From NCBI RefSeq assembly GCF_050920415.1, contig NZ_CP169309.1: a stretch of 64,000 bases of DNA. One strand, 5' to 3'. Source of the stretch: Escherichia coli (GTDB taxonomy: Bacteria > Pseudomonadota > Gammaproteobacteria > Enterobacterales > Enterobacteriaceae). The position numbers and the translations under genes were made by a program. Each line of letters starts with the position of its first letter. Position 1 is the stretch's first letter. The notes below the pieces were generated by a model that was not told the origin of the DNA, did not search any database, and saw only the letters and a program-made list of their open reading frames with translations. Of the stretch, positions 20,127 to 55,867 are shown piece by piece.

Positions 20127-21967
<1,841 letters not shown>

Positions 21968-40878: not shown

Positions 40879-43800
40879 ATGAAAAGAATGTTAATCAACG
40901 CAACTCAGCAGGAAGAGTTGCGCGTTGCCCTTGTAGATGGGCAGCGTCTGTATGACCTGGATATCGAAAGTCCAGGGCACGAACAGAAAAAGGCAAACAT
41001 CTACAAAGGTAAAATCACCCGCATTGAACCGAGTCTGGAAGCTGCTTTTGTTGATTACGGCGCTGAACGTCACGGTTTCCTCCCACTTAAAGAAATTGCC
41101 CGCGAATATTTCCCTGCTAACTACAGTGCTCATGGCCGTCCCAACATTAAAGATGTGTTGCGTGAAGGTCAGGAAGTTATTGTTCAGATTGATAAAGAAG
41201 AGCGCGGTAACAAAGGCGCAGCACTGACCACCTTTATCAGCCTGGCAGGTAGCTATCTGGTTCTGATGCCAAACAACCCGCGCGCGGGTGGTATTTCTCG
41301 CCGTATTGAAGGCGACGACCGTACCGAATTAAAAGAAGCACTGGCAAGCCTTGAACTGCCGGAAGGCATGGGGCTTATCGTGCGCACCGCTGGCGTCGGC
41401 AAATCTGCAGAGGCGCTGCAATGGGATTTAAGCTTCCGCCTGAAACACTGGGAAGCTATTAAAAAAGCCGCTGAAAGCCGCCCTGCCCCGTTCCTGATCC
41501 ATCAGGAGAGCAACGTAATCGTTCGCGCATTCCGCGATTACTTACGTCAGGACATCGGCGAAATCCTTATCGATAACCCAAAAGTGCTCGAACTGGCGCG
41601 TCAGCATATCGCTGCATTAGGTCGCCCGGATTTCAGCAGCAAAATCAAGCTGTACACTGGTGAAATTCCGCTGTTCAGCCACTACCAGATCGAGTCGCAG
41701 ATCGAATCCGCCTTCCAGCGTGAAGTCCGTCTGCCGTCTGGTGGTTCTATTGTTATCGACAGCACTGAAGCGTTAACTGCCATCGATATCAACTCCGCAC
41801 GCGCGACCCGCGGCGGCGATATCGAAGAAACCGCGTTTAACACCAACCTCGAAGCTGCCGATGAGATTGCTCGTCAGCTGCGCCTGCGTGACCTCGGCGG
41901 CCTGATTGTTATCGACTTCATTGACATGACGCCAGTCCGCCACCAGCGTGCGGTAGAAAACCGTCTGCGTGAAGCGGTGCGTCAGGACCGTGCACGTATT
42001 CAAATCAGCCATATTTCTCGCTTTGGTCTGCTGGAAATGTCCCGTCAGCGGCTGAGTCCATCGCTGGGTGAATCCAGCCATCACGTCTGCCCGCGCTGCT
42101 CCGGTACCGGCACCGTGCGTGACAACGAATCCCTGTCGCTCTCTATTCTGCGTCTGATTGAAGAAGAAGCGCTGAAAGAGAACACCCAGGAAGTCCATGC
42201 CATTGTTCCTGTGCCAATCGCTTCTTACCTGCTGAACGAAAAACGCTCTGCGGTAAATGCCATTGAAACTCGTCAGGACGGCGTGCGCTGTGTGATTGTG
42301 CCAAACGATCAGATGGAAACCCCGCACTACCATGTGCTGCGCGTACGCAAAGGGGAAGAAACCCCAACCTTAAGCTACATGCTGCCGAAACTGCATGAAG
42401 AAGCGATGGCGCTGCCGTCTGAAGAAGAGTTCGCTGAACGTAAGCGTCCGGAACAACCTGCGCTGGCAACGTTTGCCATGCCGGATGTGCCGCCAGCGCC
42501 AACGCCAGCTGAACCTGCCGCGCCTGTCGCAGCCCCAGCACCTAAAGCTGCATCAACAACACCAGCAGCTCCTGCACAACCAGGGCTGTTAAGCCGCTTC
42601 TTCGGCGCACTGAAAGCGCTGTTCAGCGGTGGTGAAGAAACCAAACCGACCGAGCAACCGGCACCGAAAACTGAAACGAAACCGGAACGTCAACAGGACC
42701 GCCGTAAGCCACGTCAGAACAACCGTCGTGACCGAAATGAACGCCGCGACACACGTAGCGAACGTAATGAAGGCAGCGATAATCGCGAAGAAAACCGCCG
42801 TAATCGTCGCCAGGCACAGCAGCAGACTGCCGAGACGCGTGAGAGCCGTCAGCAGGCTGAGGTAACGGAAAAAGCGCGTACCACCGACGAGCAGCAAGCG
42901 CCGCGTCGTGAACGTAGCCGCCGCCGTAATGATGATAAACGTCAGGCGCAACAAGAAGCGAAAGCGCTAAATGTTGAAGAGCAATCTGTTCAGGAAACCG
43001 AACAGGAAGAACGTGTACGTCCGGTTCAGCCGCGTCGTAAACAGCGCCAGCTGAATCAGAAAGTGCGTTACGAGCAAAGCGTAGCCGAAGAAACGGTAGC
43101 CGCACCAGTGGTTGAAGAAACTGCCGCTGCCGAAACCATCGTTCAGGAAGTGCCTGCTCCGCGTACAGAACTGGCGAAAGTCCCGCTGCCAGTCGTAGCG
43201 CAAACTGCGCCGGAACAGCAGGAAGAGAACAATGCTGATAACCGTGATAACGGTGGCATGCCGCGTCGCTCTCGCCGCTCGCCTCGTCACCTGCGCGTAA
43301 GTGGTCAGCGTCGTCGTCGCTATCGTGACGAGCGTTACCCGACCCAGTCGCCAATGCCGTTAACCGTAGCGTGCGCGTCTCCGGAACTGGCCTCTGGCAA
43401 AGTCTGGATCCGCTATCCGATTGTACGTCCGCAAGATGTACAGGTTGAAGAGCAGCGCGAACAGGAAGAAGTACAAGTGCAACCGATGGTGACTGAGGTC
43501 CCTGTCGCCGCCGCTGTCGAACCGGTTGTTAGCGCACCGATTGTTGAAGAAGTGGCTGAAGTCGTAGAAGCCCCCGTTCAGGTTACCGAACCGCAACCGG
43601 AAGTGGTTGAAACGACGCATCCTGAAGTGATTGCCGCCGCGGTAACTGAACAGCCGCAGGTGATTACCGAGTCTGATGTTGCCGTAGCCCAGGAAGTTGC
43701 AGAACACGCAGAACCGGTGGTTGAACCGCAGGAAGAGACGGCTGATATTGAAGAAGTTGCCGAAACTGCTGAGGTTGTGGTTGCTGAGCCTGAAGTTGTT

Positions 43801-44064
43801 GCTCAACCTGCCGCGCCAGTCGTCGCTGAAGTCGCAGCAGAAGTTGAAACGGTAGCTGCGGTTGAACCTGAGGTCACCGTTGAGCATAACCACGCTACCG
43901 CGCCAATGACGCGCGCTCCGGCACCGGAATATGTTCCGGAGGCACCGCGTCACAGTGACTGGCAGCGCCCTACTTTTGCCTTCGAAGGTAAAGGTGCTGC
44001 AGGTGGTCATACGGCAACGCATCATGCATCTGCCGCGCCTGCGCGTCCGCAACCTGTTGAGTAA
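40879..44064 (+). CDS. rne: Ribonuclease E
   Basis: 1061 aa; N-terminal S1/catalytic domain, Arg-rich and acidic low-complexity C-terminal scaffold. Confidence 0.98.
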
Positions 44065-44181: not shown

Positions 44182-44258
44182 AAAAAAATGCCCGCCCCGG
44201 CGATCCCAGAGCGGGCAGACAAAACATACCCAGTTTCATGATATGTTTTAAAGCGAGC
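44182..44258 (-). ncRNA. flgO: flgL 3' UTR with terminator; region of the 3'UTR-derived sRNA FlgO
   Basis: About 77-nt 3' UTR ending in tgcccgc...gcgggca hairpin plus U-run; sRNA identity is by position and recalled literature, ends not defined. Confidence 0.3.
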
Positions 44259-45212
44259 TTATTTGTTGAGCTGGAAGAGCGACAATCCCTGCATATCGGT
44301 AAATGCTTTATACGATGCCTGCAATGCCGTTTGCTGCATGATGTAAGATGAAATAGTTGCATTCCAGTCCACATCAACCAGATCGCTCATCTGCTGCGTT
44401 TGCCCTAAAGCGCGATCGCTACCTAATGAATCCAGCGACTCCAGTTCGTTCAGCTGCGTGCCTAATTCCGCGCGAACGGTCAGCACATTGTTCAGCGAGT
44501 TTTTCAGTCCGCGGTTGGTTTTATCCAGTGCCGCAGCGGTGGTTTCTTTATCCGCTTCGCTTTCCGCGACCGGCGTTTTCAGGGCTGCGATGGCGCTATC
44601 CAGCATGGCAAAAAGATTGGTTTCAGAAGCGCTACCGTCTGGTTCCGCTACCGCGTTGCTGGTAATACTGTCGAAAATTTTGTCACCCGTGTGCCCTATC
44701 ACCATCGAACGCGAAGCATCGACCTGTTGTTTAATACTTTCTGCTCCGCCAACATATTCGCCGTCTGCCTCACTAAACGGCGCAGTTTCTGTTTTATAAC
44801 CGGCAAAAATGTAGCGCCCGTTACCATCCGTAGTGTTCGCCAGATTCAGCAACTGGTCACGAATACCCTGGATATCGGTTGCCAACGACGCCCGGTCATC
44901 ATCACTCAAGGTGCCATTGCTGGCGTAGACAATTTTTTCCTGAGCATTCTGGATAGCAGTGGTGACCTGGCTAAGCACACTCTCTTCCAGTGACACTTTT
45001 TGAGTGGCGAAAGTACGCGCCAGCGTGTACTGACTGTTTTGCGCCTGTGCCTGGGAGAGAACAACAGCTTGTGATGCAGCAATGGGATCATCTGAAGGGT
45101 TAACGACTCGCTTACCCGTCGACATCTGTTCGCCGTACTTCATCCATTCGGCCTGAGAATTGGTGATGCCACGCATGTTTTGCTGGTACATCATCTGGGT
45201 ACTGAAACGCAT
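44259..45212 (-). CDS. flgL: Flagellar hook-filament junction protein FlgL
   Basis: 317 aa. Confidence 0.96.
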   Translation of the reverse strand: MRFSTQMMYQQNMRGITNSQAEWMKYGEQMSTGKRVVNPSDDPIAASQAVVLSQAQAQNSQYTLARTFATQKVSLEESVLSQVTTAIQNAQEKIVYASNGTLSDDDRASLATDIQGIRDQLLNLANTTDGNGRYIFAGYKTETAPFSEADGEYVGGAESIKQQVDASRSMVIGHTGDKIFDSITSNAVAEPDGSASETNLFAMLDSAIAALKTPVAESEADKETTAAALDKTNRGLKNSLNNVLTVRAELGTQLNELESLDSLGSDRALGQTQQMSDLVDVDWNATISSYIMQQTALQASYKAFTDMQGLSLFQLNK

Positions 45213-45223
45213 TTTATCTCCCC

Positions 45224-46867
45224 TTAACGAATGTTAATCAGCGCATCAAAAATCGCGTTTGCCGTCTGCAGAACCTGTGCATTCGCCAGATAATACTGCT
45301 GAAAACGTTGCAGATTTCCGTACTCCTCATCGAGATTGACACCGGAAATCGACTGCTGCTGATTGGAAAGCTGCGTTACCACATTACCTTGCGTGGTGCT
45401 ACTGGTTTTCAACGTCGCGGTTTTATTACCGATATCACTCACTAACGATGCATAAGCGTCGTTAAAGGATTTCGCACCGCCCACCGTTTTACTGTTGCTT
45501 TGCAGATCCAGCAGGGCCTGACCGTTGCGGTTGTCGCTATCACCCGCATCTTCTTCGCTCGCCATGGCGATTTTCGCTTCGTCAGTGATTAATACATCCA
45601 TGTTGACGATGGCGTCACTTACCGGTTTCAGCGTGAAGCTGTCGTTAACGGCAGGCGTTCCTGTAAACGTCAACTCCAGACCATCAAATGCCACTTTACC
45701 GTTGGCATCCGGCGTCACCGTAAAAGTGGTATTGCTGGCAAGGCGGGTGACCTGCCACTGATTATTATCGAACGAGATTTTGTAATCTGTCGCCAGTACC
45801 GCGGAGGCATCAGTTACCGTGGCACCGATCGCAACGTCACCGTTGTTTTTAGTGTTTTGCAGAACCGCGGGCTTACCGATAGCAAAGAAATCTTCACCGG
45901 CATCGCCGTTAGCATCAAATCCGGCTTTGTGTTGGGTGTTGAAAGCCTCGGCAAATGCCAGCGCCAGTTGTCCGAGCGTATTACGCGTCTGGTCCAGATC
46001 CTGAGAACGGAATGTCAGAATGCCGCCCAGTGACCCGGTATTCAGCAATTTCTCCGGGATCTCAAGATTGCCCGCAGTCCCATCAACATAAGCGACAGTC
46101 GTACGAGAAGGGTCGGCGCTGGAAGGAACTGCCGCTAGCTGCCGCGCCGTACTACCCTGAACCAGTGAGTAACCATTGGCCATCGTGATGTTATAAGTGC
46201 CGCCATCCTGAACGCTGACTTCTACACCAACAATCTGGTTTAATTCGCTCACCAGTTGATCGCGTTGATCCAACAGATTGTTAGGTGACGCCCCTGCTCC
46301 CACGCCTGTCAGACGGGAGATTTGATCGTTCAGGCTGGCGATTTGTTTAGCGTAATTGTTGATCTGATCAACGCTGGCACCTATCGCGATATTGACCTGT
46401 TTGTCCTGGTCGCGCAGATATTGATCGGTGGTTTTAAACTGATTCACCAACCCTTCTGATTTCCCAATCAGCGCCTGGCGTGCTGCCGGGTCTTCCGCGT
46501 TACTTACCAGCGTTTGCAGGCTTGTGAAGAAATCCTGCATCTGTGTTGCCAGCGAAGAGGTACTGGTGGAGAGCATATTGTCGATTTTCGACATCTGCTC
46601 ATAGCGGGCAGTCAGGCCGCTACTTTGCGTCTGCGCAGCACGTAACTGGTTGGTAATAAACGCATCATACTCACGCTGCACACCAGAAACGTAGACGCCA
46701 TTGCCAACCCAGCCGCCAGCGCCCAACGTGCTATTGGCCTGCGCCATAATAGTGGTTTGGCGGGTATATCCGGCAACGTTATAGCTGGAGATATTATTAC
46801 TTGCCGTATTTAACGCCGCCTGGGCCGCGTTCAGTCCGCTCATGGCGTTATTGATCAAGCTGGACAT
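45224..46867 (-). CDS. flgK: Flagellar hook-associated protein 1 FlgK
   Basis: 547 aa. Confidence 0.96.
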   Translation of the reverse strand: MSSLINNAMSGLNAAQAALNTASNNISSYNVAGYTRQTTIMAQANSTLGAGGWVGNGVYVSGVQREYDAFITNQLRAAQTQSSGLTARYEQMSKIDNMLSTSTSSLATQMQDFFTSLQTLVSNAEDPAARQALIGKSEGLVNQFKTTDQYLRDQDKQVNIAIGASVDQINNYAKQIASLNDQISRLTGVGAGASPNNLLDQRDQLVSELNQIVGVEVSVQDGGTYNITMANGYSLVQGSTARQLAAVPSSADPSRTTVAYVDGTAGNLEIPEKLLNTGSLGGILTFRSQDLDQTRNTLGQLALAFAEAFNTQHKAGFDANGDAGEDFFAIGKPAVLQNTKNNGDVAIGATVTDASAVLATDYKISFDNNQWQVTRLASNTTFTVTPDANGKVAFDGLELTFTGTPAVNDSFTLKPVSDAIVNMDVLITDEAKIAMASEEDAGDSDNRNGQALLDLQSNSKTVGGAKSFNDAYASLVSDIGNKTATLKTSSTTQGNVVTQLSNQQQSISGVNLDEEYGNLQRFQQYYLANAQVLQTANAIFDALINIR

Positions 46868-46900
46868 GGAGGTTCCTTATAAGCCTTCAATTACAGAGTA

Positions 46901-46927
46901 TTATCGGCAGCGACCCGCCGGACTTGA
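46901..46927 (-). promoter_or_regulatory. Putative sigma28 (class 3) promoter for flgKL
   Basis: Minus strand TCAAGTCC-N11-GCCGATAA; the -10 element is a perfect match, the -35 matches 5 of 8. Confidence 0.4.
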
Positions 46928-46932
46928 GTTAT

Positions 46933-47874
46933 TCAGAACAGATTATCAATGTTCATGCTGTAGGTTTTGCTCACCTTGTCGCTTATCGATTTCATCTGCT
47001 GAATCATGCTGGTGAGTTTGCGGGCATAGTGAGGATCGGTGGCATAGCCCGCGTCCTGTAGGGCCTGCGCCCCCTGCTCAGCACTCGCGGCGGTCGTCAC
47101 GGCGGCGTAGCGCGGGTTACGCGTTAACAGCCCAACGTAATCCGACAATGCTTCCAGATACGAGCTGTAGACCCGAAACTTCGCTTTTACTTTCTTCGCT
47201 TCGCCATTTTCATATTCAGTCGTGGTGATTTCAGTGACTGGCCCTTTCCAGTTGCCAGAGGCTTTGACGCCAAACAGGTTATAGCTCGGCTCGCCGTTTT
47301 CACGGCGGATTTGCCGTTGTCCCCAGCCAGATTCCAGCGCCGCCTGAGCGAGGATCAAATGATGTGGCACACCGCTTTGCTGGCTTGCCAGTTGGGCGGG
47401 CAACGAGAGTTGCGCGAGGAATGCTTTACTGTCACCCGGCAGCGAATCATCGTAGTTACGTGGTACGGCCTTTTGCACCAGCTGCGAAAGCGTCTGATTT
47501 TGATAACGCACCACGGTTTCGAGCGGGAATTTCATCGGTGCTGCTGGCGTGGACTCATCTGGCAACGGTTGTTCTGGCGTCATCTGTTTAACAATCATCT
47601 CTGCCAGCCCCAGGCCTTTGCCCGCCGTCATCTGTTGGGCAATCTGCTGGTCATACATACTGGTGTAGAGGCGAGTGTGCTCGCTGCTGAACAGGCCATC
47701 TTTTGGCAAAGCGTCGCGCATGCTTTTCAGCATCATCTGCACGAACATCCCTTCCACCTGGCGGGCCACCGGACGGATATTTGCCGCCGGATCTTCGCCC
47801 GCTTTCGCCTTAAGTTCGTTGAGCGATTGTGCATCCCAGGCCGCACTTGCCAGTAGTTTGCTGTCGCTGATCAT
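46933..47874 (-). CDS. flgJ: Flagellar rod assembly protein / peptidoglycan hydrolase FlgJ
   Basis: 313 aa from ATG at 47874 ([14 protein letters not shown]), in TGATG overlap with the flgI stop. Confidence 0.94.
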   Translation of the reverse strand: MISDSKLLASAAWDAQSLNELKAKAGEDPAANIRPVARQVEGMFVQMMLKSMRDALPKDGLFSSEHTRLYTSMYDQQIAQQMTAGKGLGLAEMIVKQMTPEQPLPDESTPAAPMKFPLETVVRYQNQTLSQLVQKAVPRNYDDSLPGDSKAFLAQLSLPAQLASQQSGVPHHLILAQAALESGWGQRQIRRENGEPSYNLFGVKASGNWKGPVTEITTTEYENGEAKKVKAKFRVYSSYLEALSDYVGLLTRNPRYAAVTTAASAEQGAQALQDAGYATDPHYARKLTSMIQQMKSISDKVSKTYSMNIDNLF

Positions 47875-52692: not shown

Positions 52693-53388
52693 TTAAATTA
52701 TCTGCCGTACTTCGTCGAGGGTGGTGGTGCCGTAAGTGCCGAGATCCAGCGTATTACCGTTGTTGCCGCGGATCACCCCCTGCACCAGAGCAAACTGCAG
52801 CGGCTGGGCAACCAGTTGTGTACCACCGCTACTGGCGCTAATCGCTACATTGTAAGAACCGTTCGGCGCAGTGCTGCCGTCAGTCAACGTACCGTCCCAG
52901 GTGAAACTGTGGACTCCGGCAGTCAGTTCACCGATATCAATGGTACGGACAACCGCGCCGTTTTTATCGGTGATGGTGGCCGTAACTTTGTCTGCCGCCT
53001 GCTGCAACTCAACACCAAACGGTGTGGTCGTGGTCACAGCCCCTTCTTCACTGCCGGTTCCGGCAAGAACTGTGGTGCCGGGGATCATCACACCGTGACC
53101 GATCAGGTTACTGGCCTGTAACGACTGGCTGTTATCAATCTGTCCGGAAATAGATCCGAGCGTGGTATTGAGTTTTTCAATCCCGCTGACCGTGCTGATT
53201 TGCGCCAATTGCGACGTCAGCTCGTTGTTTTCCATTGGATTGGTCGGGTCCTGGTTTTTCAGCTGCGCCACCAGCAAAGTCAGAAAACTGCTTTGTAAAT
53301 CTGCGGCGTTGCTACCCGTGAGCGAGCTACTGCTGGTGGTGCTAACGCCGGTATTTGTCGGATCGGTGGTGGTTACCGCAATGGACAT
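52693..53388 (-). CDS. flgD: Flagellar hook capping protein FlgD
   Basis: 231 aa. Confidence 0.96.
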   Translation of the reverse strand: MSIAVTTTDPTNTGVSTTSSSSLTGSNAADLQSSFLTLLVAQLKNQDPTNPMENNELTSQLAQISTVSGIEKLNTTLGSISGQIDNSQSLQASNLIGHGVMIPGTTVLAGTGSEEGAVTTTTPFGVELQQAADKVTATITDKNGAVVRTIDIGELTAGVHSFTWDGTLTDGSTAPNGSYNVAISASSGGTQLVAQPLQFALVQGVIRGNNGNTLDLGTYGTTTLDEVRQII

Positions 53389-53807: not shown

Positions 53808-54224
53808 TTAATTTCCGCTCTGTAAAACGTTCATCATGCCTTTGATTTGCCCGCTCAACGCGCTAAGGCTCATCTGGTATTGCAGGCTATTATCGGCAAA
53901 CTGGGTGCGTTCGCGATCCATATCGACGGTATTACCATCCAGCGAAGGCTGGTCCGGAATACGGTATTGCAGTTCTGCGGTAGGAGGCGTCAGCGCCTGC
54001 GCCGGAATGTGTTGCGTTGAGGTCATCGTCAGCGCAACCATGCTGGTTTCATCCCGTCCACGCTGCATGACCTTTTTAAGTTCACTGGCAAAATCGATAT
54101 CGCGTGCCTGATAACCAGGGGTATCGGCATTGGCGATGTTTGCTGCCAGCACTTCCTGACGCTGGGCGCGCAGATTGAGCGCCTCTTGTTGAAAACGTAA
54201 GGCGGCGTCGAGCTTATCGAGCAT
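53808..54224 (-). CDS. flgB: Flagellar proximal rod protein FlgB
   Basis: 138 aa. Confidence 0.97.
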
Positions 54225-54378
54225 ATCTCCTCCGCAAGTATCAAAATTCTGCCATCAGCTTAAATGCCTTTACGCGCGCGTTATCGGCGGAATAAACGCA
54301 AAATGGGTCGCTATTTATGCCGTTGATGGTCATTGCGTACAGGTACAATTCACGTTGTAGAAATGGCTGGGAGCGAAA
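54225..54378. promoter_or_regulatory. Divergent flgB / flgA class 2 promoter region (FlhDC-dependent by established knowledge)
   Basis: 154-bp divergent intergenic region; binding sites not individually mapped here. Confidence 0.5.
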
Positions 54379-55038
54379 ATGCTGACAATAAAACGTAGCG
54401 TGGCGATCATTGCGATACTGTTCAGTCCGTTAAGTGCGGCGAGCAATCTCACATCGCAGTTACAAACCTTTTTTAGCGCCCAGCTCGCGGGAGTAAGTGA
54501 TGAGGTTCGTGTTTCTATTCGTACATCGCCCCATCTACTTCCGCCGTGCGAGCAACCACTGCTTTCGATAAGCAATAATTCCCGCCTGTGGGGAAATGTG
54601 AATGTGCTGGCACGCTGCGGTAACGACAAACGATATTTGCAAGTCAATGTACAGGCCACAGGAAATTATGTGGTTGCCGCGATGCCCATTGTGCGGGGAG
54701 GAAAGCTGGAAGCTGGCAATGTAAAACTGAAACGCGGACGACTGGACACCTTGCCGCCGCGTACTGTGTTGGATATCAATCAACTTATTGATGCCGTTAG
54801 CCTGCGCGATCTATCACCCGAACAACCTATCCAATTAACCCAGTTGCGCCAGGCCTGGCGTGTAAAAGCGGGACAACGCGTCAACGTGATCGCCAGTGGT
54901 GATGGGTTTAGCGCCAACGCTGAAGGTCAGGCGCTGAACAATGCTGCCGTCGCACAGAATGCGCGGGTGCGCATGGTATCGGGACAGGTGGTCAGCGGCG
55001 TTGTTGATGCAGATGGGAATATTCTTATAAACCTGTAA
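54379..55038 (+). CDS. flgA: Flagellar P-ring assembly chaperone FlgA
   Basis: 219 aa with signal peptide. Confidence 0.95.
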   Translation: MLTIKRSVAIIAILFSPLSAASNLTSQLQTFFSAQLAGVSDEVRVSIRTSPHLLPPCEQPLLSISNNSRLWGNVNVLARCGNDKRYLQVNVQATGNYVVAAMPIVRGGKLEAGNVKLKRGRLDTLPPRTVLDINQLIDAVSLRDLSPEQPIQLTQLRQAWRVKAGQRVNVIASGDGFSANAEGQALNNAAVAQNARVRMVSGQVVSGVVDADGNILINL

Positions 55039-55043
55039 GCTAT

Positions 55044-55070
55044 TAAAGATTACCCGTCCCTTGCCGATAA
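55044..55070 (+). promoter_or_regulatory. sigma28 (FliA) class 3 promoter for flgMN
   Basis: TAAAGATT-N11-GCCGATAA, near-perfect match to the TAAAGTTT-N11-GCCGATAA consensus, about 45 bp upstream of flgM. Confidence 0.8.
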
Positions 55071-55113
55071 ATAAGCAACACATGATAAAAGCGCCCTCAA
55101 TGAGGAATAAACC

Positions 55114-55407
55114 ATGAGTATTGACCGCACTTCACCTCTGAAGCCCGTAAGCACCGTTCAACCGCGTGAAACCACTGACGCGCCGGTAACGAATACCCGG
55201 GCGGCAAAAACAACCGCCGCCACCAGCACCAGTGTGACGTTAAGCGACGCGCAAGCAAAACTAATGCAACCCGGCAGCAGTGATATCAATCTTGAACGTG
55301 TCGAAGCGTTAAAACTGGCGATTCGTAACGGTGAACTAAAAATGGACACCGGCAAAATTGCCGATGCGCTAATCAACGAAGCGCAGCAAGACTTGCAGAG
55401 TAACTGA
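55114..55407 (+). CDS. flgM: Anti-sigma-28 factor FlgM
   Basis: 97 aa. Confidence 0.97.
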
Positions 55408-55411
55408 TCGT

Positions 55412-55828
55412 ATGACGCGTCTTGCAGAGATCCTCGACCAGATGTCCGCAGTGCTTAACGATCTCAAAACGGTAATGGATCAAGAGCAGCAACATCTCTC
55501 AATGGGGCAGATCAACGGCAGCCAGTTGCAATGGATTACAGAACAAAAAAGCTCACTGCTGGCGACGTTGGATTACCTCGAACAGTTACGCAGAAAAGAA
55601 CCCAATGCAGAAAATAGCGTTGATATTAGTCAACGTTGGCAGGAAATTACGGTGCAAACTCAGCAACTACGTCAAATGAATCAACATAATGGCTGGTTAC
55701 TGGAAGGACAGATTGAGCGCAATCAACAGGCGCTGGAAATGTTAAAACCGCATCAGGAACCGACGCTGTACGGGGCGAACGGTCAGACATCAATACCCCA
55801 TCGCGGCAGTAAAAAGATTTCGATCTGA
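55412..55828 (+). CDS. flgN: Flagellar export chaperone FlgN
   Basis: 138 aa. Confidence 0.96.
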   Translation: MTRLAEILDQMSAVLNDLKTVMDQEQQHLSMGQINGSQLQWITEQKSSLLATLDYLEQLRRKEPNAENSVDISQRWQEITVQTQQLRQMNQHNGWLLEGQIERNQQALEMLKPHQEPTLYGANGQTSIPHRGSKKISI

Positions 55829-55867
55829 AGATTATCTCCGGCCTGCAGTGCAGGCCGGAATGCATTG

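Follow-up and report, generated by a model that had tools for sequence, protein, structure and literature searches.

Sequence context, conservation and published FliA data support two internal class 3 (sigma-28) promoters, of flgKL and flgMN, in the flg cluster of Escherichia coli

Two short motifs in the flagellar flg cluster of Escherichia coli, one located between flgJ and flgK and the other between flgA and flgM, are almost certainly internal class 3 promoters of FliA (sigma-28), from which flgKL and flgMN, respectively, are transcribed. Both are identical to motifs recovered by FliA ChIP-seq and to the RegulonDB promoters flgKp and flgMp, which bears out the sigma-28 class 3 assignment made in the initial annotation of this DNA. 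The two promoters are already catalogued and belong to textbook biology.

The DNA analysed (hereafter the window) is a stretch of 64,000 nucleotides of the E. coli chromosome that contains the flg region, with the gene order reversed relative to K-12. The 901 nt around the flgK site have matches in 5,425 of the 5,426 complete E. coli genomes, and are 100% identical to strain MFDS1022581, whose record annotation, together with the list of open reading frames, is the basis of the gene order in Table 1. The gene context assumed in the initial annotation is right; Table 1 includes the stops of flgJ and flgA and the starts of flgK and flgM.

Table 1. Coordinates of the genes, promoter elements and related features in the window.
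Feature	Position	Strand	Remarks
rne	40879-44064	+	
flgL 3'UTR with intrinsic terminator	44182-44258	-	12-bp stem 44217-44189 plus T-run (terminator scan)
flgL, hook-filament junction protein 3	44259-45212	-	
flgK, hook-filament junction protein 1	45224-46867	-	ATG at 46867
flgKp catalogued +1	46894	-	G of TACTCTG; RegulonDB, HIPP code only
flgKL -10 element GCCGATAA	46901-46908	-	perfect match; extended -10 GC plus core CGATAA
flgKL 11-nt spacer GGCGGGTCGCT	46909-46919	-	length kept, sequence variable
flgKL -35 element TCAAGTCC	46920-46927	-	part of FliA ChIP-seq motif; TCAAG in 53/53 flgK loci
flgJ	46933-47874	-	stop at 46933
flgI through flgB	flgB at 53808-54224	-	
flgA	54379-55038	+	stop at 55038
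flgMN -35 element TAAAGATT	55044-55051	+	7/8; 6 nt past flgA stop; FliA ChIP-seq motif
flgMN -10 element GCCGATAA	55063-55070	+	
flgMp catalogued +1	55077	+	A of AAGCA; RegulonDB, HIPP code only
flgM, anti-sigma-28	55114-55407	+	ATG at 55114
flgN, FlgK/FlgL export chaperone	55412-55828	+	
murJ	after flgN	-	convergent
Copies of GCCGATAA	6474, 6888, 8756, 30953, 31825, 33593, 46901, 53890, 54281, 55063, 56195		

The flgK motif, TCAAGTCC-N11-GCCGATAA at 46901-46927 on the minus strand, occurs once in the window and is located inside the 65-nt flgJ-flgK spacer, which reads on the minus strand TGA (flgJ stop) ATAAC TCAAGTCC GGCGGGTCGCT GCCGATAA TACTCTG TAATTGAAGGCTTAT AAGGAA CCTCC ATG. Its -35 element starts 5 nt past the flgJ stop codon in Escherichia, and its -10 element ends 33 nt before the ATG of flgK, which has the same orientation. 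From the catalogued start at 46894, the 5'UTR would be 27 nt long, with the Shine-Dalgarno sequence AAGGAA at 46878-46873. The flgM motif, TAAAGATT-N11-GCCGATAA at 55044-55070 on the plus strand, is also present as one copy and lies in the flgA-flgM spacer (plus strand: TAA (flgA stop) GCTAT TAAAGATT ACCCGTCCCTT GCCGATAA ATAAGCA... ATG). Here, 43 nt separate the end of the -10 element from the flgM ATG on the same strand, and the start catalogued at 55077 would give a 37-nt 5'UTR ahead of the ATG at 55114.

Both motifs share the architecture of the consensus sigma-28 promoter, TAAAGTTT-N11-GCCGATAA (Koo et al., 2009, as quoted by Hollands et al., 2010), that is, two blocks with an 11-nt spacer and a perfect -10 element. 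The flgM motif departs from the consensus by a single mismatch (A for T at -35 position 6), while the flgK motif has three, all of them in the -35 element (5/8), namely C for A at position 2 and CC for TT at positions 7-8. The -35 positions 1, 3 and 5, which mutagenesis of the aer promoter has found to be critical (Hollands et al., 2010), are kept in flgK (T1, A3, G5). The initial annotation had described a near-consensus motif for flgMN and, on the minus strand upstream of flgK, a perfect -10 with a weaker -35, and both descriptions are accurate, with zero and three mismatches in the two flgK elements.

In E. coli K-12, the corresponding 28-mers, TCAAGTCCGGCGGGTCGCTGCCGATAAT for flgKp (RegulonDB ECK120009892; ChIP site 1137565) and TAAAGATTACCCGTCCCTTGCCGATAAA for flgMp (RegulonDB ECK120009891; ChIP site 1129384), are identical to the window and occupy the same positions relative to flgJ/flgK and flgA/flgM, respectively. 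For flgKp, the surrounding 81 nt quoted by RegulonDB are also identical; at flgMp, the window has A at 55042 (+) versus G in the RegulonDB K-12 sequence, a SNP two bases upstream of the -35 element. In Salmonella enterica, TCAAGTCC-N11-GCCGATAA is found at the same distance to the flgK ATG as in the window, with the spacer ACACAGTAGCT in place of the E. coli GGCGGGTCGCT.

The conservation of the flgK site was examined by scanning one genome per species with a degenerate FlgK N-terminal coding pattern (AMSGLNAAQAA), which yielded 55 loci, and the promoter motif played no part in their choice. The loci come from Escherichia, Salmonella, Citrobacter, Proteus, Rahnella, Hafnia, Ewingella, Cedecea, Trabulsiella, Pluralibacter, Phytobacter, Chimaeribacter, Edaphovirga and other genera. 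For 52 loci, 200 nt of upstream sequence was available, and in 51 of them the best match to the weight matrix described below is TCAAG...N11...(G/A)CCGATAA; the one exception has an identical motif farther out, about 180 nt from the coding anchor (about 155 nt before the ATG). With the window included, TCAAG-N(3+11)-(G/A)CCGATAA is present upstream of flgK in all 53 loci with enough upstream sequence, which represent about 20 genus-level groups of Enterobacterales. In a set of one sequence per genus-level group (n=20), the -10 octamer had a mean pairwise identity of 0.98. The -35 element, whose first five bases are invariant, reached 0.84, the spacer only 0.35, and the flanks only 0.41 (10 nt upstream) and 0.30 (20 nt downstream). 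The 20 spacers are all distinct and all 11 nt long. The same pattern is seen within E. coli. Across the flgJ-flgK junction, 3,430 of 5,424 genomes show an identity of at least 99%, and the genome that diverges most has its intergenic substitutions immediately before the -35 element, within the spacer and immediately after the -10 element, with none in the boxes.

Then, could the two blocks upstream of flgK have been kept for a reason other than FliA, such as the coding of the flgJ C-terminus, the initiation of flgK translation or an RNA element in the read-through transcript, their promoter-like look being incidental? The closeness of the -35 element to the flgJ stop codon in Escherichia would fit such an explanation, and some FliA-like sites are conserved even in species without fliA (Fitzgerald et al., 2018). 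However, the blocks lie outside the flgJ coding sequence in all the aligned genera, and they lie anywhere from about 30 to about 160 nt ahead of the flgK start codon (5'UTR lengths from about 27 to about 155 nt across the loci). Therefore, neither flgJ coding nor the ribosome-binding site fixes the place of the boxes. In addition, exactly the two sigma-28 boxes are kept at the fixed 11-nt spacing across 20 different spacers, and the spacer keeps no complementary sequence for a conserved hairpin. Conservation for a purpose other than FliA binding is consequently very improbable, and FliA promoters remain the reading that we adopt.

Loci outside the Escherichia-Salmonella group have a flgK 5'UTR of about 80-160 nt, which contains segments with inverted repeats that are conserved within each genus, such as CACGGTGG...CACCGGCAG in Rahnella (loci L003, L009, L012, L018 and similar ones), GAGCAT...ATGCTC in Proteus (L010, L014, L044 and similar ones) and CGTCAGCCGGCGTCAC in Hafnia, Ewingella and relatives (L017, L040 and L030). 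Judged from these sequences, the long flgK leaders may indicate a post-transcriptional regulation that is absent from E. coli.

The two promoters differ in their -35 elements in a consistent way. Upstream of flgM, TAAAG...N11...G(C/T)CGATA, with scores of 23-26 bits, is found in all eight loci that reach flgM. At flgK, TCC at -35 positions 6-8, which weakens the 3' half of the element further relative to TTT or TTC, is confined to Escherichia, Salmonella and Citrobacter, and most other genera have TCAAGTTC or TCAAGTTT as the -35 element, with scores of 20-26 bits. The C at position 2 is invariant at flgK and the A is invariant at flgM in the same genomes, which suggests promoter-specific tuning under selection. 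That is, each promoter may hold its own -35 variant (TCAAG at flgK in 53/53 loci, from Escherichia to Proteus; TAAAG at flgM in 8/8), so that A and C at position 2 would not be interchangeable. Selection could then be keeping the flgK promoter at a set strength or timing with respect to class 2 read-through, one probably below the maximum, and the promoter would be more than a "weak" copy of the consensus. We advance this proposal tentatively, giving it somewhat less than even credence. A limited survey of the FliA literature revealed no discussion of promoter-specific tuning at -35 position 2. The idea that TCAAG is the usual FliA -35 element of Pseudomonas was also considered, but finds no support in the structural paper on P. 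aeruginosa, which gives TCTAAAG (NAR 2026).

How far the motifs stand out by score was assessed with a weight matrix constructed from 23 strongly bound FliA ChIP-seq sites (Fitzgerald et al., 2014), with flgMN and flgKL left out. For the full 27-mers of both motifs, the number expected in shuffled sequences is 0. The flgM motif scores 28.1 bits, which exceeds everything in 150-200 random windows. The flgK motif scores 16.3 bits, a level at which a first-order Markov null predicts about 0.2 sites in a window of 64 kb. It ranks only fifth in the window, and three of the sites above it, at 21193-21220 (-), 31331-31358 (+) and 52963-52990 (-, within flgD), score 17.9-18.4 bits and are absent from the FliA ChIP-seq list. 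Since these unbound sites outscore it, the flgK motif is unconvincing by sequence match alone, and a claim of significance on that ground was rejected; the three sites could serve as useful negative controls for motif-only prediction. The outcome is different when position is counted: the spacer offers 38 possible positions, and the null predicts about 6e-5 correctly oriented matches of the flgK quality among them, a figure that rises to about 1e-3 if the window's own rate of look-alikes is used instead. The flgM promoter is thus unambiguous by motif score, while flgK is significant only with position counted. As a benchmark, the two sites show that the initial annotation recognised sigma-28 promoters correctly. 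A consensus match would not by itself part the genuine flgK site from the unbound look-alikes; it is position together with conservation that does so and settles the case of flgK.

The GCCGATAA octamer is itself over-represented in the window, with 11 copies (Table 1) against 2.1 expected from shuffles, and no shuffle gave as many. Of these copies, only those at flgK and flgM are accompanied by a usable -35 element at N11; most of the others lie inside genes, and they are absent from the FliA ChIP sites. Codon usage may be the cause of this excess.

The published occupancy data treat the two sites almost equally. The FliA ChIP-seq list contains the identical 28-mers, with a fold-above-threshold (FAT) of 48 for flgMN and 47 for flgKL, both among the stronger of the 52 sites, and it shows no further site in the part of the K-12 map matching the window (Fitzgerald et al., 2014, Table 2); the published correction to that paper changes only a footnote. 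In the supplement of the same paper, flgKp and flgMp are reproduced from RegulonDB with human inference (HIPP) as the only evidence code, whereas the tsr and aer promoters also carry transcription-initiation mapping. No entry was found in the supplementary tables of a Cappable-seq study at the predicted K-12 start coordinates, which in NC_000913.2 are 1137574 for flgK and 1129388 for flgM. The flgKL promoter has been counted as one of "eight well characterized" E. coli sigma-28 promoters, and no CRP binding was found at flgKL (Hollands et al., 2010).

Among the expression data, those from qRT-PCR are decisive. By this method, with values relative to wild type (Fitzgerald et al., 2014, Table S2), deletion of flhD reduced flgK to 0.003, flgB to 0.001, flgM to 0.016 and flgA to 0.009, and pBAD-fliA in this background brought flgK to 1.44 and flgM to 3.37, while flgB stayed at 0.0018 and flgA at 0.012. 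Deletion of fliA lowered flgK to 0.21 (p = 1.4e-6), flgM to 0.23 and flgB to 0.65, and the drops in flgK and flgM were both complemented (Fitzgerald et al., 2014). In an earlier microarray study of a fliA deletion, the changes were -5.5 fold for flgK, -4.9 for flgL, -6.9 for flgM and -4.6 for flgN. By RNA-seq, the fliA deletion changed flgKL from 318 to 138 and flgMN from 451 to 318, neither of which was flagged as significant, and the authors concluded that FliA adds little to the dual-regulated flgKL and flgMN transcripts under their conditions (Fitzgerald et al., 2014). With lacZ fusions (-200 to +10), the Wade laboratory found FliA dependence for 15 of 20 intergenic sites. Those named as failing are fliA, fliD and fliL, together with pntA and cvrA, which had a high background; flgK and flgM are absent from them, and are thus positive by elimination. 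According to the same laboratory, the classical flagellar FliA promoters are well conserved except fliL.

These data bear directly on the possibility that the flgK motif is a chance match and that flgKL is expressed only by class 2 read-through from flgB. As noted above, a score of 16.3 bits can be reached by chance at the scale of the window, and three unbound sites score higher; read-through from the flgB promoter is real, as RT-PCR across flgJ-flgK has demonstrated it (Fitzgerald et al., 2014), and the effect of the fliA deletion in RNA-seq is modest. However, the FliA ChIP peak lies at the exact flgK motif, FliA supplied in the flhD deletion restores flgK while flgB stays at 0.0018x, the motif is retained in every orthologous locus amid randomised non-coding sequence, and the expectation within the spacer is very small (~6e-5 to 1e-3). 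A chance match is therefore effectively refuted, with a probability that we regard as negligible. A lack of FliA-dependent transcription downstream of the motifs, named in the initial annotation as grounds for giving up the promoter reading, is contradicted by the published flgK and flgM data. Its ranking of flgK as the weaker candidate stands for the match to the consensus (16 versus 28 bits), but not for FliA occupancy (FAT 47 versus 48), for the level in the fliA deletion (0.21 versus 0.23) or for conservation (53/53).

A sigma-70 (class 2, FlhDC-activated) promoter at the flgK site, for which it could be said that a GCCGATAA-like octamer near flgB (54281-54288) indicates CGATAA-type -10 elements in class 2 promoters as well, is just as negligible, since no sigma-70-type -35/-10 match was found in 46600-47200, FlhDC ChIP shows a single site in the cluster, at the flgA/flgB divergent region (Fitzgerald et al., 2014, Table 1), and FliA alone restores flgK in the flhD deletion.

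The octamer near flgB deserves a separate description. It is a third perfect GCCGATAA, located in the flgA/flgB divergent region at 54281-54288 (-), 57 nt upstream of the flgB ATG, and it has a poor -35 element, CCCATTTT. Other genera keep only CGAT(A/G) there (GGCGATAAC, GACGATAGG, CGCGATGGG), beside a conserved CATTTTGCGCTTATTC block; CCGATAA is kept in none of the other-genus loci, and the matrix gives at most 7 bits in that register. A third sigma-28 promoter at this position was rejected, given the poor -35 element, the unconserved octamer, the lack of a FliA ChIP peak and the lack of flgB rescue by FliA. The octamer looks like the -10 region of the class 2 FlhDC/sigma-70 promoter.

Taking the two sites as FliA promoters, a scheme for their action can be proposed. 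RNA polymerase carrying FliA binds each promoter. Sigma domain 4 would read the -35 element (TCAAGTCC or TAAAGATT), and 11 bp farther downstream sigma domains 2 and 3 would read the -10 element, both its extended GC and its core CGATAA. We infer these contacts by analogy with the sigma-28 holoenzyme-promoter structures of E. coli (PDB 6PMI) and P. aeruginosa (NAR 2026). Transcription would be expected to start 6-7 nt past the -10 octamer, which places the start near 46894 for flgK and near 55077 for flgM, and the exact +1 nucleotides should be read as predicted ones.

The promoters are located 5-6 nt past the stop codon of the last class-2-only gene (flgJ or flgA), and no terminator was predicted in the flgJ-flgK spacer; flgKL and flgMN are therefore transcribed twice. 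In the early phase, polymerase reads through into them from the class 2 promoters (FlhDC/sigma-70) of flgB and flgA; later, after the hook-basal body exports FlgM, the output comes from the FliA promoters and is independent of FlhDC. In Salmonella, too, a class 3 promoter is nested behind a class 2 operon, and the flgB-L and flgKL operons overlap (Kutsukake and Ide, 1995; Wozniak et al., 2010, both as cited in Fitzgerald et al., 2014).

The flgKL transcript would end at the terminator at 44217-44182 and would also yield the sRNA FlgO. FlgO is an Hfq-binding sRNA of about 75 nt with few known targets that is processed from the flgL 3'UTR, and it is reduced in a fliA deletion on northern blots (Melamed 2023). 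In the window, the flgL stop codon and the end of the terminator are 77 nt apart, and this 3'UTR matches the sigma-28-dependent FlgO. No Rfam family was hit between 43900 and 56000, so FlgO has no entry in that database. At the other end of the cluster, the 39-nt gap between the convergent flgN and murJ contains a perfect GC-rich palindrome, CCGGCCTGCAGTGCAGGCCGG, at 55838-55858. It is likely a bidirectional terminator hairpin; it has no clear T-run, and a simple terminator scan did not call it.

For the annotation of this region, the two sites set the internal boundaries of the overlapping flg units, that is, flgBCDEFGHIJ(KL) with flgKL, and flgA(MN) with flgMN, and in this respect the flgK and flgM motifs do provide the anchor points for operon structure that the initial annotation expected of them. 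Beyond correct annotation, the sites matter little. For the biology of the flagellum, they explain how the junction proteins, FlgN, FlgM and FlgO can be supplied independently of FlhDC after completion of the hook-basal body.
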